Counted from the first letter of the stretch, positions 9,746 through 15,274 are shown. The stretch is DNA of 64,000 nucleotides from an uncultured Acidobacteriota bacterium (GCA_963827655.1 CAWHCF010000042.1:32001-96000); one strand, 5' to 3'. The notes: generated by a model from the sequence alone, not told the origin. A program made the numbers and translations.

Positions 9746-11237
9746 ATGGGCCTAATACCGGGCTACGAGAGCGACATCTTCATCAGCTACGCTCACAACG
9801 ACAATCTCCCTGTCCTCGATCTCAGGTGGGTAGACTGGTTTCATGAAAACCTCGAGAACCTGCTGATCGACAAACTCGGAGAAAGGCCCGTCATATGGCG
9901 CGACAGGAGGATCGATCAAACCGACCTCATTGAGGGGCTTCTCGATTCACGCGTCAATTCCTCCGCCTTGATGCTGGCCATCGTTTCGCCGAGCTACCTC
10001 AAATCAAAGTGGTGCGGGTGGGAGCGCGAGAAGTTTGTTGAAAATGCGGAAAGGCGCGGCGGGCTGCGGGTGGCCAACAAGAGTCGCATCGTCAAAGTGG
10101 TCAAGACTTACATTGAGAGCGCCAGCCTTCCCGGAGAGCTTCAAGAGACGCTCGGCGGCGAATTCCTGCGCCACGACCAAGCCGCCGGGAAATACATCCA
10201 GCTTGATTGGCAATCCCCAGAGTACCGGCAAGAGCTGGAAGCACTCGCAGATAGCGTAAAGAGCCTGATTGAAGCCTTCAGGGATCACACGGTGGCAGCC
10301 GTCCCGCTTACAAGAGAGAAGACCGTCTACCTCGCGGAGACCGATTCCGAGTTGGAGACTGAGCGCAACGACATCAAACGCGAGTTTGAACAGAACGGTT
10401 ACCACATATTCCCGAGCGTTGATCTCCCTCTCAGAGTCCACTGCCACCGCCATTGAAGAGAAGGTGCGCGACTACCTCAAGTCCGCCCAGGTCTCCGTGC
10501 ACCTGCTCGGGGCGAACTACGGCTTTGTGCCGAATAAGGGAGCGGGCCGTTCTATCGTCCGCATACAGTACGAGCTCGCGCAGCAGCACGACTCTGGCCC
10601 GGCCTTCAAACAGGTCCTATGGATTCCGAAGGGGCTGGAGGAGAGCCAGGAAAGCGAGCCTGAGCAAAGAGAGTTCATCAGCCAACTGCTGGCCAGTTCA
10701 TCCGCCCTGCGTCGCGCCGAAGTGCTGCGCGGCGACATCGAGGAATTGAAGACTTACGTGCACAACTTGTTCAGGCCGACGCCCAAATCTGTGGTTAACC
10801 TCAAAGGTAATGGCAGCACGGCCAGCGTCTATTTGATCTGCGATAAGAATGATTACGAAGAAACGGGCGCGATCGAAGAGTACCTGACCGAGCAGCACTG
10901 CGAAGTCTTGCCGACACTGCTCGAAGGCGAGGCGGAACAGGTCACACAGTATCACCGCGACAGCCTGCTCGAATGCGACGCCTTTCTCGTCTACTACGGC
11001 CGTGCCAGTTACCCCTGGGCGCTGATGAAAAAACAGGAATTCCTCAAGCTGCCGGGCCTGGGGCGGTCGAAGCCTGTCGTCGCCAAAGCCTTTTACATCA
11101 GCGGCGAGGAGAATCCGCACAAACAGCGCTTCGCCAGCAGCGAGGCTATCGTGATCAAAAATTACGACGTATTCTCACCCGAATCGCTGACTCCGTTCCT
11201 CGAGCAAATCCGCCAAGTTAAGGGACTAACGGCATGA
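9746..11237 (+). CDS. TIR-domain protein followed by two further TIR/DUF4062-like domains; +1 frameshift ~10430
   Basis: DIFISYAH...IWRD...IVSPSYLKSKWCGWE (TIR_2-like); VYLAET...SVHLLGANYG; VYLICD...CDAFLVYYG. Confidence 0.8.
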
Positions 11238-14200
11238 TCGCCGAGAGCATTGAGAAACTGTCGAACGTCCACTCGTCCGAGAACCCTTTCCCCGGACTGC
11301 GTCCGTTCGAGCTTCACGAGAGCCATCTATTTTTCGGGCGCGAGGGGCAGAGCGAAAAGCTGCTGGCTAAACTCGAGGCCACGCGCTTCCTGGCAGTCGT
11401 CGGCACGTCGGGGAGCGGCAAATCGTCGCTCGTGCGCGCGGGGCTCGTGCCCGCGTTGTTGGGCGGGATGATGGTCAGCGCCGGATCTAACTGGCGCGTC
11501 GCCCTGCTGCGCCCGAGCAATGATCCGATCGGCAATCTGGCGCGGGCGCTTGAGCTCGCCCGAGGTCTTCGGCTCGGACATTTCGGAGAATGCGGAGAGC
11601 CAGGCACGGGTCGCTGAAGCGACGCTGCGGCGCGGCAATCTCGGGCTGGTCGAGGCCGTGCGGCTGGCATTGCAGACCGCGGACGAGAATCTGCTGGTGG
11701 TCGTCGATCAGTTCGAGGAATTGTTCAGGTTCGCGCGCGAGGCCGAGAGTACGCGCTACGAAAACGACGCGGCGGCTTTCGTTAAACTGCTGCTCGAACC
11801 CTCGCGCCAATACCAGTTGGAGCAGGAAGAACTGCGCCGGAAATTACAGTCCATCGAAGGCTTACTTCGGCACCAGAAGCTGAGTCACGAAGAAGCTCGT
11901 CGAGAGGAAGCTTCAGTCCGGGAAGAAGCCCGCAAGCGTGACGCTGAGAATTTACGTCGTGCTGACGATGCGGTCGGATTTTCTGGGCGATTGCGCGAAG
12001 TTCTGGGATTTGCCCGAAGCCGTCAACGAGAGCCAGTACCTGATCCCGCGCCTGACCCGCCATCAACTGCGCGAGGCTATCGCCGGCCCGGTCGCCGTCG
12101 GCGGCGGCCAGATCGCGCCCCGCTTAGTCAATCAATTGCTCAATGATATAGGCGATAACCAGGATCAGTTACCCGTGCTGCAACACGCGCTGATGCGGAC
12201 GTGGGGCGAATGCAAGCAACGGAAGCACGACCACGTAGCCGCACCCGGTGAAATTGATGTGTGCTGTTACGAAGCAATCGGCGGGATGAAGGAGGGGCTC
12301 TCCCGCCACGCCGGCGAAGCTTACAGCGAACTCGACGCGGCGTCATCAGAAGATCGCCGAAAGGATGTTCAAAGCTTTGACCGAGAGGGGTGAGGACAAC
12401 CGCGAAATTCGTCGCCCGGCGACACTTGGCGCGCTCGCCGCCATCGCGGATGCCGGCGAGGACGAGGTCAAAACAGTTATCGAAAAGTTTCGCCAACCGG
12501 GCCGGTCGTTCCTGATGCCGCCCGCCGGGACGCCGCTGCATTCTGACACCTTGATTGACATCTCGCACGAAAGCCTGATCCGCGTGTGGAAAATATTGCA
12601 GCAGTGGGTTAATGAAGAGGCCGAATCGGCGACCATCTACCGCCGGTTGGCTGAAACCGCGGCGCTGCACGGCAAAGGCGAAGCCGAACTGTTGGGCAAG
12701 CTCGATCTGAAGCCGGTGTTGAAATGGCGGAAGAAGAACGAGCCGAACCCGCATTGGGCCGCGCGATACGAATCCGGCCTGCGCTACAAATCGGACCTGC
12801 CGGCGGCGCTGGCCTTTCTCGAAGCGAGCAAAAAGAACCGCGCGGACGAGATTGCCGAGCGCCGGCGGAGCAGGAGGGAGAAGGCGGAGCAAGGCCAGCG
12901 CCAGTTGGCGCAGGCGCAGGCCCTGGCCGAAGCACAGTCTCAGGCGGCGGACGCCGAACGGCAAAAGGCAGAAGAGCAGACTAAAGCGGCAAGCCGATTA
13001 CGGCGCTTCCTGGCGGCATTGGTCGTTGCGGCTTTGTTGGCGCTCGTGGCTGCGGGCCTCGCTCTCTCGGCGTACCGCCGCGCCAATGCAGAAAAAGCCA
13101 ACGCGAACAGACAAAAGGAGATTGCCGAAAACAGAAGAGAGGCCGAGCAGCCAAAGGGATGCACTTGATCAAAAGACCATAGCCGAGGAGAAAGACAAAA
13201 GCCGAAGACGAGAGAGGCTGAAAGCACGCGACGCGCGGCAACAAACTGAGGCAGCGAACAACGCAACTAGAGAAACGGAACGGCAAAAGCAACTGGCTGA
13301 TAGCACAGCCTACATCGCAAATATGAATCTTTCTCGGTCTGAGTTCGAAAGAGGCAATCATCAAAGGGGGTTTGAGTTACTTGACGCATATCTGCCTGCA
13401 ACCAACGCAGCGCAAGATCAGAGTGGTTTGCGGAGCTTCTATTGGTATTACCTCTGGCGACAAAACAATAGGGATTACACGCTCACCGGGCATGGGGACT
13501 TCTGTCTTGTCAGTGGCGTTCGCGCCGGACGGGCGGACGCTGGCCAGTGCGAGTGGGGACAAGTCGGTGAAGCTGTGGGACGTGCAGAGCCGCAAGGAAG
13601 TGGCCACGCTCACCGGGCATGGGGCTGTTGTCATGTCAGTGGCGTTCGCGCCGGACGGGCGGACGCTGGCCAGTGCGCAGTGGGGACAAGTCGGTGAAGC
13701 TGTGGGACGTGCAGAGCCGCAAGGAAGTGGCCACGCTCACCGGGCATGGGAGCTTCTGTCAGGTCAGTGGCGTTCGCGCCGGACGGGCGGACGCTGGCCA
13801 GTGCGAGTGAGGACAAGTCGGTGAAGCTGTGGGACGTGCAGAGCCGCAAGGAAGCTGGCCACGCTCACCGGGCACGGGGCTGCTGTCAGGTCAGTGGCGT
13901 TCGCGCCGGACGGGCGGACGCTGGCCAGTGCGAGTTAGGACAAGTCGGTGAAGCTGTGGGACGTGCAGAGCCGCAAGGAAGTGGCCACGCTCACCGGGCA
14001 TGGGGCTTATGTCTATGTCAGTGGCGTTCGCGCCGGACGGGCGGACGCTGGCCAGTGCGAGTGCGGACAAGTCGGTGAAGCTGTGGGACGTGCAGAGCCG
14101 CAAGGAAGTGGCCACGCTCACCGGGCATGGGAATGCTGTCTGGTCAGTGGCGTTCGCGCCGGACGGGCGGACGCTGGCCAGTGCGAGTGGGGACAAGTCG

Positions 14201-15274
14201 GTGAAGCTGTGGGACGTGCAGAGCCGCAAGGAAGCTGGCCACGCTCACCGGGCATGCGGACTCATGTCTGGTCAGTGGCGTTCGCGCCGGACGGGCGGAC
14301 GCTGGCCAGTGCGAGTGGGGACAAGTCGGTGAAGCTGTGGGACGTGCAGAGCCGCAAGGAAGCTGGCCACGCTCACCGGGCATGGGGATGATGTCTGGTC
14401 AGTGGCGTTCGCGCCGGACGGGCGGACGCTGGCCAGTGCGAGTGCGGACAAGTCGGTGAAGCTGTGGGACGTGCAGAGCCGCAAGGAAGCTGGCCACGCT
14501 CACCGGGCATGGGGATGCTGTCTGGTCAGTGGCGTTCGCGCCGGACGGGCGGACGCTGGCCAGTGCGAGTGAGGACAAGTCGGTGAAGCTGTGGGACGTG
14601 CAGAGCCGCAAGGAAGCTGGCCACGCTCACCGGGCACGGGGATGATGTCATGGTCAGTGGCGTTCGCGCCGGACGGGCGGACGCTGGCCAGTGCGAGTGA
14701 TGACAAGTCGGTGAAGCTGTGGGACGTGCAGAGCCGCAAGGAAGTGGCCACGCTCACCGGGCACGGGGATTATGTCAGGTCAGTGGCGTTCGCGCCGGAC
14801 GGGCGGACGCTGGCCAGTGCGAGTGCTGACAAGTCGGTGAAGCTGTGGGACGTGCAGAGCCGCAAGGAAGCTGGCCACGCTCACCGGGCATGGGGATTCT
14901 GTCTGGTCAGTGGCGTTCGCGCCGGACGGGCGGACGCTGGCCAGTGCGAGTGAGGACAAGTCGGTGAAGCTGTGGGACGTGCAGAGCCGCAAGGAAGTGG
15001 CCACGCTCACCGGGCACGGGAGTGCTGTCAGGTCAGTGGCGTTCGCGCCGGACGGGCGGACGCTGGCCAGTGCGAGTGATGACAAGTCGGTGAAGCTGTG
15101 GGACGTGCAGAGCCGCAAGGAAGTGGCCACGCTCACCGGGCATGGGGCTCTGTCTTGTCAGTGGCGTTCGCGCCGGACGGGCGGACGCTGGCCAGTGCGA
15201 GTGCTGACAAGTCGGTGAAGCTGTGGGATGGAGCTACAGACAAAGACATTGAGGACTATAAACCGAGGAAATGA
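11234..15274 (+). CDS. nSTAND1-type NTPase - coiled coil - TM helix - 14xWD40 receptor (NLR-like); many apparent indels and one in-frame TAG in the consensus
   Basis: NPFPGLRPF...FFGRE, Walker [10 protein letters not shown], Walker [62 protein letters not shown]...WD repeats; ATGA overlap with TIR gene; stop TGA 15272-15274. Confidence 0.85.
13479..15229 (+). repeat. Tandem array of 14 near-identical 126-nt WD40-coding repeats
   Basis: Unit starts at 13479, 13606, 13733, 13861, 13987, 14114, 14241, 14369, 14496, 14623, 14750, 14877, 15003, 15129. Confidence 0.97.

Follow-up and report, generated by a model that had tools for sequence, protein, structure and literature searches.

A two-gene locus in a 64,000-nt stretch of DNA from an uncultured Acidobacteriota bacterium (GCA_963827655.1 CAWHCF010000042.1:32001-96000; hereafter the window, whose coordinates are used throughout) probably encodes a self-contained, translationally coupled NLR-like module, consisting of a membrane STAND protein with an external sensor and a separate TIR effector, with the frame breaks that interrupt both genes being assembly errors. 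We infer the binding of the two proteins, their topology, the NADase output and the immune or allorecognition role. Both genes lie on the + strand. Gene 1 (9746..11237), encoding the three-domain effector protein, is divided between two open reading frames (ORFs) in different frames (9746..10456 and 10269..11237). Gene 2 (11234..15274), encoding an effector-less nSTAND1-transmembrane-WD40 receptor, contains multiple +1 breaks and was followed by tblastn through frames 2, 3, 1, 2 and 3, with at least five frames before the repeat array and many inside it; its stop TGA occupies 15272-15274, and if read through it would yield a product of ~1340 amino acids (aa). The first-pass annotation had claimed that the TIR gene stop overlaps the STAND start, and the + strand indeed reads ATGA at 11234-11237, in which the ATG of gene 2 (11234-11236) overlaps the TGA (11235-11237) that terminates ORF 10269..11237. 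Its second claim, that the STAND protein lacks an N-terminal effector of its own, also holds: NPFPGLRPF is found at residue 17, and the Pfam nSTAND1 match begins at residue 18 (Pfam was run on seven ORF fragments of the two genes).

Scanning one genome per species returned at least 599 pattern matches, with at least 461 confirmed by tblastn, and the best 80 loci were analysed. Judged by record title, these are mostly from Acidobacteriota, with some from Verrucomicrobiota, Cyanobacteria, Gemmatimonadota and Proteobacteria; one of them, L010, lies on a complete metagenome-assembled chromosome and carries an intact pair encoding proteins of 496 and 1239 aa. A downstream partner, defined as a + strand ORF of at least 100 aa starting -60 to +400 nt from the end of the TIR gene, was present in 75/80 loci, and nSTAND1 was detected in it at E <= 1e-5 in 69 of these 75. 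Rare co-occurrence of the two homologs, the outcome named beforehand as speaking against a module, is thus not what was found. The motif NP[FY]xGL starts at residue 3-17 of the downstream ORF in 67/80 loci, that is, in every one of the 67 motif carriers, and the intergenic gap is -4 in 26 of the 67 and between -29 and +31 nt in 66. A STAND-like ORF lies on the opposite side in four loci, including L046, one of the six without nSTAND1 downstream. No flanking gene family was conserved in more than 13/79 loci. Since the pairing is conserved and the flanks are unshared, the unit is taken to be the two genes. Its distribution is patchy, and a search of 60 kin genomes (36 from the same family and 24 from the same class) detected gene 1 in none at E <= 1e-10. 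As a separate observation, a gene of ~744 aa belonging to an unassigned family lies near the pair in 13/79 loci including L013, upstream in 11 and downstream in two.

Intact relatives of gene 1 are 496 aa long. The AlphaFold model of one of them, P0002 (496 aa, 89% identical to gene 1), displays three alpha/beta domains (D1-D3) with a pLDDT of 80.5, and tblastn with the intact L010 gene-1 protein recovered residues 1-228 in frame 2 and 230-494 in frame 3 of the window. Domain 1 (9746..10300, + strand) was matched by TIR_2 (PF13676) over residues 11-104 of the translation of 9746-10453, with an E value of 8.6e-10 and 39.6 bits against a cut-off of 28. The top Foldseek matches of this domain were the TIR domains of RPP1, SNC1, SARM1, SPARTA and AbTir, and the PDB matches of the P0002 model at probability 1.00 include the TIR domains of SNC1, SARM1, AbTir and RUN1. 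A Glu residue (E93, within SKWCGWERE in the window) is present in 79/79 relatives, at the position that we take, from plant and SARM1 TIRs, to be that of the catalytic Glu. Judged by these features, domain 1 is a true TIR that may cleave NAD+.

Domain 2 (10310..10784, + strand) displays a DUF4062/NIR-like TIR fold with Gln at the catalytic Glu position (VRIQYELA). The DUF4062 domain is described as a TIR-like NADase, and renamed NIR, in the available text of two 2026 preprints (bioRxiv 10.64898/2026.09.04.749371, 10.64898/2026.05.01.722283). With a Pfam cut-off of 24.7 bits for DUF4062 (PF13271), the window copy (16.9) and that of L010 (18.8) scored below it, and the relatives P0020 and P0016 reached 30.5 and 30.0. 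VIA analysis of D2 (model residues 2-156) resulted in matches to MilB (Z 12.1, root-mean-square deviation (rmsd) 3.2, 130 aligned) and to the IL-1RAcPb TIR (Z 11.6, rmsd 3.2, 132 aligned), with TIR domains overall at Z 11.6-10.7. The catalytic position was set by alignment with two canonical DUF4062 domains of the same genome (GITEREYRRA and SITALELAHA), the Glu of one of which aligns to the Ala of KpSwz E97A chain 10wc_A, the solved KpSwz structure being that of the E97A mutant as far as the preprint text available describes it (bioRxiv 10.64898/2026.09.04.749371). At this position Gln is found in 78/79 relatives and Glu in 1/79, so the expected Glu (E97 in KpSwz, E108 in PsAvs2) is absent. 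Because the same source reports NIR E-to-Q or E-to-A mutants as inactive, domain 2 is most likely an NIR-like domain that has lost catalysis and kept a conserved pocket residue, and it is probably a regulatory or scaffolding pseudo-enzyme.

Three TIR domains in gene 1, as proposed by the first-pass annotation, were considered and rejected. Comparison by hhalign (80 sequences) gave E values of 0.3 for D1 against D2, 0.59 for D1 against D3 and 0.016 for D2 against D3, and since neither D2 nor D3 shows significant likeness to D1, a triple TIR is unsupported by sequence. What survives of that description is the true TIR of domain 1; domain 2 is instead DUF4062/NIR-like with Gln, and domain 3 a flavodoxin-like adaptor. 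Elsewhere in the same genome, DUF4062 domains with the catalytic Glu were observed at C50:134799-135026 and C52:170281-170547 (- strand), heading frames of 1369 and 831 aa, which are possible fused NIR-type defence proteins.

Domain 3 (10812..11234, + strand) forms the C-terminal part of gene 1, modelled together with domain 2 at a pLDDT of 91.6. VIA matched it to receiver domains (Z 11.1, rmsd 2.8, 115 aligned), SEFIR (9.9) and deoxyribosyltransferase (NDT, 9.7), consistent with a generic flavodoxin-like fold as modelled. In most members no Pfam match was found for this domain, and in the distant member P0083 it gave a weak TIR_2 match (E 2.8e-5) below the cut-off; Foldseek of the D2-D3 model returned only generic two-Rossmann enzymes (TM score 0.2-0.3) and was uninformative. 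A profile search with domain 3 recovered 2496 representative clusters at E <= 0.001. Among the best 150 of these the domain is the last in the protein in nearly all, with P0040 and P0090 as exceptions, and is fused to a STAND in none. Ten longer proteins carrying domain 3 were scanned, nine of which contain further modules, namely a Ser/Thr kinase (four), a CHAT caspase-like protease (one), an adenylate/guanylate cyclase (one) and extra sequence or TIR domains placed before the TIR/DUF4062 core (three); the tenth has domain 3 ahead of its TIR domains.

A docking surface on domain 3 was indicated by complex prediction on the L010 pair, for which STAND residues 1-450 and the whole gene-1 protein were each supplied as an alignment, together with three controls. 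The ipSAE was 0.79, 0.79 and 0.78 for the pair and 0.00 for the best control; the mark applied is reached by 58/80 solved complexes and by 2/110 mismatched pairs, counts that are rough with custom alignments. The runs share at least 88% of contacts, with a partner pLDDT of at least 79. In the predicted interface, STAND residues 2-49, 73-87 and 274-307 face gene-1 residues 315-340, 392-404 and 420-439, which would place domain 3 and the D2-D3 linker against the N-terminal strand and first helices of the NTPase. The split receptor/effector arrangement proposed at first is therefore supported both by the conserved pairing and by a controlled complex prediction. The further suggestion that the receptor recruits the TIR protein in trans fares well in that the proteins are separate and predicted to bind, but the models favour a different timing: the gene-1 protein is probably pre-docked on the NTPase through domain 3, and not recruited upon activation.

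The nSTAND1 NTPase module of gene 2 (11285..12667, + strand) was matched by PF20703 on four fragments with 103.9, 24.8, 112.0 and 47.5 bits, of which 24.8 is below the cut-off of 27.1. The first match starts at residue 18 with an E value of 1.9e-29, and the profile pieces 1-88, 92-148, 152-277 and 282-370 span positions 1-370 of 379, confirming the nSTAND1 assignment made from the sequence at first; the intact L010 STAND scores 312.6 bits. Walker A (GTSGSGKSS) and Walker B motifs are present, and across 75 partners residues G57-S65 show conservation of 90% or more. At 11800-11950, within nSTAND1 and after Walker B, lies a charged insert of ~45 aa that resembles a coiled coil and includes ARKRD; L010 also has one, and one relative's contig skips 11798-11953, with 27 other letters instead.

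Following the NTPase module, a hydrophobic stretch at 13007..13075 (+ strand) corresponds to a single transmembrane helix. Among the 58 partner STANDs of at least 650 aa, 57 contain a single strongly hydrophobic helix at residues 475-580, right after nSTAND1. Within the 15 residues flanking this helix, K/R is richer on the N side in 50/57, poorer in 2/57 and tied in 5/57, with means of 6.4 before and 3.4 after the helix. Under the positive-inside rule this excess places the NTPase inside and the sensor outside, so that the STAND is probably N-in/C-out with a periplasmic sensor. The C-terminal sensors of the partners are swappable, comprising WD40, TPR, and TPR with a peptidoglycan-binding domain. 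WD40 was found in 27-28 of the 58 C-terminal regions, and ten non-WD40 sensors comprised TPR alone (five), TPR with PG_binding_1 (two), TPR with a SNAP-type helical repeat (one), a coiled coil (one) and no match (one). PG_binding_1 is a peptidoglycan-binding domain of extracytoplasmic proteins.

In the window, the sensor is an array of 14 near-identical WD40 units, 13 of them full (13478..15228, + strand), for which Tandem Repeats Finder reported a period of 127, 13.8 copies and 95% matches. When the 13 full units were aligned, 130 columns resulted, made up of 126 base columns and four insertion columns. Substitutions occur in 11 of the 126 base columns, at 16-32 and 80-82, so that variation is confined to a few codons in a near-identical-repeat pattern. 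Full units are 126-128 bases long and none is shorter; the insertion columns hold 12 extra bases among the 13 units, and no deletion occurs. Of the 13 units, six have GAAGCTGGC where the remainder have GAAGTGGC. The uniformity of the units could partly be an effect of homogenisation by the assembler. Swappable effector heads, patchy distribution and near-identical WD40 units together form the signature of a conflict system.

The frame breaks in the two genes are most likely assembly errors and not decay. Gene 1 has one +1 break at ~10436/7, and gene 2 has +1 breaks at ~11548, 11944-6 and 12339 and one more between the helix (13076) and 13168; relative to the intact L010 pair and to the WD40 units, the total is ~17 one-base insertions over both genes with no deletions. 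Contigs from four soil-metagenome runs (X1-X4), which represent relatives 90-99% alike and not the source sample, were compared. The extra base was absent from every covering contig, at 10436/7 in X1, X2 and X3, at 11548 in X1 and X4, at 11944 in X4 and at 12339 in X1 and X4, which indicates that the insertions are private to this assembly. A search of sequencing runs found none containing half or more of the sequence words (best 0.21). In the same assembly, rpoB is split between frames at ~C8:80968-81014 and rpoC at ~C8:83757-83819 (region C8:77700-86155), both with +1 sign, and a uvrA paralog (C52:65987-68810) is frame-split near its end, also with +1 sign, the main uvrA being whole. As a living cell cannot do without intact essential genes, the split rpoB and rpoC demonstrate that this assembly makes insertion errors, and the matching breakage of the two genes is not to be read as pseudogenisation. 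Several of the inserted bases lie beside an apparent alternative allele, such as G/T at 10436 (Ser in P0002, Ala in P0004) and GTG/CTG giving GCTG at 11944 and in 6/13 WD40 units, and may have arisen where the consensus merged different strains or different repeat units; a repeat-rich, probably strain-variable locus could draw more errors of this kind. In another assembly, the gene-1 relative P0003 (294 aa, 87% identical, on a 144-kb contig) is called only from residue ~203, as if this gene were broken at a different point in a second long-contig assembly.

Several observations weigh against an intact, membrane-spanning receptor with a docked effector. The support for the pair is computational throughout. 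The topology was derived solely from hydropathy and the positive-inside rule, and Sec export of WD40 propellers would be unusual. The complex score is a model confidence that may borrow from solved single-chain NLRs with a TIR or CARD on the NTPase, and no fused (Rosetta-stone) gene 1-STAND form of more than 868 aa was found, which counts as weak evidence. In domain 2, E/D is found two residues after the Gln in 64/79 relatives and is a possible stand-in for the lost Glu. The first-pass annotation had left open whether the pair is a characterised system; PADLOC (library dated 2023) has no known-system model for it and gave only weak ThsB-type TIR matches, along with HEAT-ARM_XIII on the WD40 part, weak mad3 (8e-5) and mad8 (3e-4) matches and no Avs model. 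The other points concern the integrity of the genes. The break density, five in 3.4 kb plus 12 in 1.75 kb, compares with ~1 per 4 kb in rpoB/rpoC; the fourth WD40 unit has an in-frame TAG at 13936-13938, in a hypervariable codon (SAS-x-DK), which is the sole nonsense codon of the locus; two nSTAND1 paralogs (C36:15667-16943 and C36:28045-29372, - strand) have frame splits of opposite sign (-1 or +2); and a transposase remnant adjoins gene 2, so that real decay of this copy is possible. Both C36 paralogs were observed to be split at the same place, residues ~168 to 239 of the module, which could reflect either a genuine feature common to the two or one error that was duplicated.

The alternative that survives best is that of a genuinely decayed pseudogene pair, a dead accessory island adjoining transposase debris. 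It would account for ~17 frame breaks and an in-frame TAG within 5.5 kb, at a density several-fold above that of rpoB and rpoC, with an IS630-type remnant directly downstream, and the contigs used for comparison come from relatives and not from the source sample. However, all of the ~17 indels are one-base insertions and none is a deletion, the same type of break is carried by essential rpoB and rpoC, and several inserted bases stand beside apparent alternative alleles, as expected if they arose as a mixed-strain or mixed-repeat consensus. Aside from the breaks, moreover, the gene-1 protein shows no lesion relative to an intact 496-aa homolog, with which it shares 89% identity. We regard decay as unlikely, though the chance of it is appreciable.

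For the coupled receptor and effector, the following mechanism is proposed. Gene 2 would encode a single-pass membrane STAND ATPase with its NTPase in the cytoplasm and its sensor beyond the membrane, and gene 1 a cytoplasmic protein whose adaptor would be seated on the N-terminal face of the NTPase. Binding of a periplasmic or envelope ligand to the sensor would send a signal through the membrane helix, upon which the NTPase modules would oligomerise. Oligomerisation would gather the pre-docked TIR domains, the gathered TIRs would switch on NAD+ cleavage or the production of an NAD-derived signal, and this output would lead to growth arrest or cell death.

A second alternative concerns the output, namely that the TIR makes an NAD-derived signal as in Thoeris instead of depleting NAD+, with the Glu-less NIR-like domain perhaps binding that product or NAD+ and so providing feedback or setting a threshold. 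Both activities, NAD+ depletion and signal production, are known for TIR domains from what is available of the two preprints (bioRxiv 10.64898/2026.05.01.722283, 10.64898/2026.09.04.749371), weak ThsB-type PADLOC and Pfam matches (E 2e-5 to 1e-2) point the same way, and the Gln kept in 78/79 relatives suggests that the pocket is retained though catalysis is lost. Gene 1 also resembles Thoeris ThsB in being a stand-alone bacterial TIR protein. Unlike Thoeris, however, the pair has no ThsA-like partner and no conserved third gene able to read a signal, its conserved neighbour being nSTAND1; the odds of this version are rather poor. Least probable is a built-in envelope signalling device for stress or peptidoglycan sensing with no part in immunity or allorecognition: a periplasmic position is predicted for the sensor, and peptidoglycan-binding domains occur in some sensors, but the flanks are unconserved (best 13/79), gene 1 is found in 0/60 kin genomes, the TIR Glu is invariant (79/79), kinase, CHAT and cyclase heads are exchanged in the effector cassette, and the WD40 blades have near-identical repeats with few variable codons, all of them features that mark conflict systems rather than housekeeping.

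Among characterised systems, PsAvs2, an Avs2 with an N-terminal NIR, combines, like the pair, a STAND with a C-terminal repeat sensor and a TIR-fold effector directed at NAD+, and has its DUF4062-type domain adjoining the NTPase; as given in the accessible portion of the preprint, it differs in that a single cytosolic chain has the catalytic Glu (E108) and senses the phage terminase through its TPRs (bioRxiv 10.64898/2026.09.04.749371). The pair has instead a separate effector, a Gln in the NIR-like domain, an added true TIR, an NTPase of the nSTAND1 clade and a helix between NTPase and sensor. In Avs and classical tripartite STAND defence proteins the effector is fused N-terminally, which is not so here, the NTPase motif lying at residue 3-17 in 67/67. 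The nSTAND1 clade (PF20703) of STAND proteins was named in a study of conflict systems, in which its members have FGS sensors and, at the N-terminus, effectors or effector-associated/adaptor domains (Kaur et al., eLife 2021, PMC8195603). Its variable effectors and sensors and its predicted counter-invader role resemble what we describe; the accessible text of that paper mentions no effector-less membrane-spanning form with a TIR-NIR-adaptor partner, which its supplements may list. The order TIR-like domain, STAND NTPase, WD40 and a proposed oligomerisation-driven activation are also shared with human TEP1, NWD1 and NWD2 (DUF4062-NACHT-WD40) and with APAF-1, according to the portion available of a further preprint (bioRxiv 10.64898/2026.05.01.722283). 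Those proteins are eukaryotic, single-chain and soluble, with NACHT rather than nSTAND1, and TEP1 keeps the catalytic Glu. NACHT proteins with several transmembrane regions may sense membrane or periplasmic signals, according to the available text of Kibby et al. The EACC1 system was considered as a relative and dropped, since EACC1 is a transmembrane domain paired with a caspase protein. In the literature consulted, of which some was available in part, no description was found of an effector-less single-pass nSTAND1 with an external sensor and a separate protein of TIR, Glu-less NIR and adaptor; supplementary tables may list one.

Two eukaryotic receptor classes offer looser parallels. Toll-like receptors share logic only, having an external repeat sensor, one membrane helix and an internal TIR; they differ in having no NTPase, an LRR sensor and a TIR that is fused and mostly a scaffold. 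Fungal HET-E/NWD-type NLRs have near-identical WD40 units with differences in a few codons, as here, and differ in their cytosolic location, their NACHT NTPase and the fusion of the effector.

Outside the module, a remnant of the C-terminal part of an IS630-type (DDE_3) transposase lies at 15450..15770 (+ strand). The IS630 debris noted in the first-pass annotation is weakly supported, by a tblastx match of 15571-15759 to C26:329674-329862 of the same genome (39.7% over 63 aa, E 1.8e-9), the latter lying within an intact 327-aa DDE_3/HTH_32 transposase ORF (C26:328933-329913); Pfam gave no match on four ORF fragments at 15271-16252, and BLASTP between one of these fragments and the C26 transposase gave no significant match (E 0.20). 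The G+C content of the locus is 0.54-0.67, with the high values within the WD40 array, and no clear island signal was obtained from base composition across the locus. Further upstream in the window, at 3273-3998 (+ strand), a 242-aa ORF combines a ribbon-helix-helix antitoxin (residues 33-70) with a PIN toxin domain (107-230). Such an antitoxin and toxin are usually encoded by two overlapping genes, so a further one-base error of the assembly may explain the fusion.

The NLR-like defences known so far in bacteria (Avs, bNACHT) have been described as single cytosolic proteins that recognise intracellular phage proteins. To this picture the family described here, with at least 461 confirmed relatives in species genomes and 2496 clusters containing the adaptor domain, would add a sensor predicted to lie outside the cytoplasm, a separate and predicted pre-docked effector in which a constant adaptor carries TIR, kinase, caspase-like or cyclase heads, and a conserved, apparently dead copy of the NIR NADase beside an intact TIR. 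For genome annotation, the locus is a warning that heavy frame breakage need not mean pseudogenisation. More tentatively, the pair may be a transmembrane bacterial NLR in which a periplasmic hypervariable sensor of WD40, TPR or peptidoglycan-binding type detects phage, envelope damage or foreign cells before entry, the TIR is held by the adaptor and the Glu-less NIR serves as a safety catch. If so, it would combine the logic of Toll-like receptors (sensing outside, TIR inside) with that of NLRs (NTP-driven oligomerisation) in one prokaryotic system. If confirmed, the module would reveal a way for immune signalling to pass a bacterial membrane and would provide a tractable model for the gating of TIR activity by a pseudo-enzyme.

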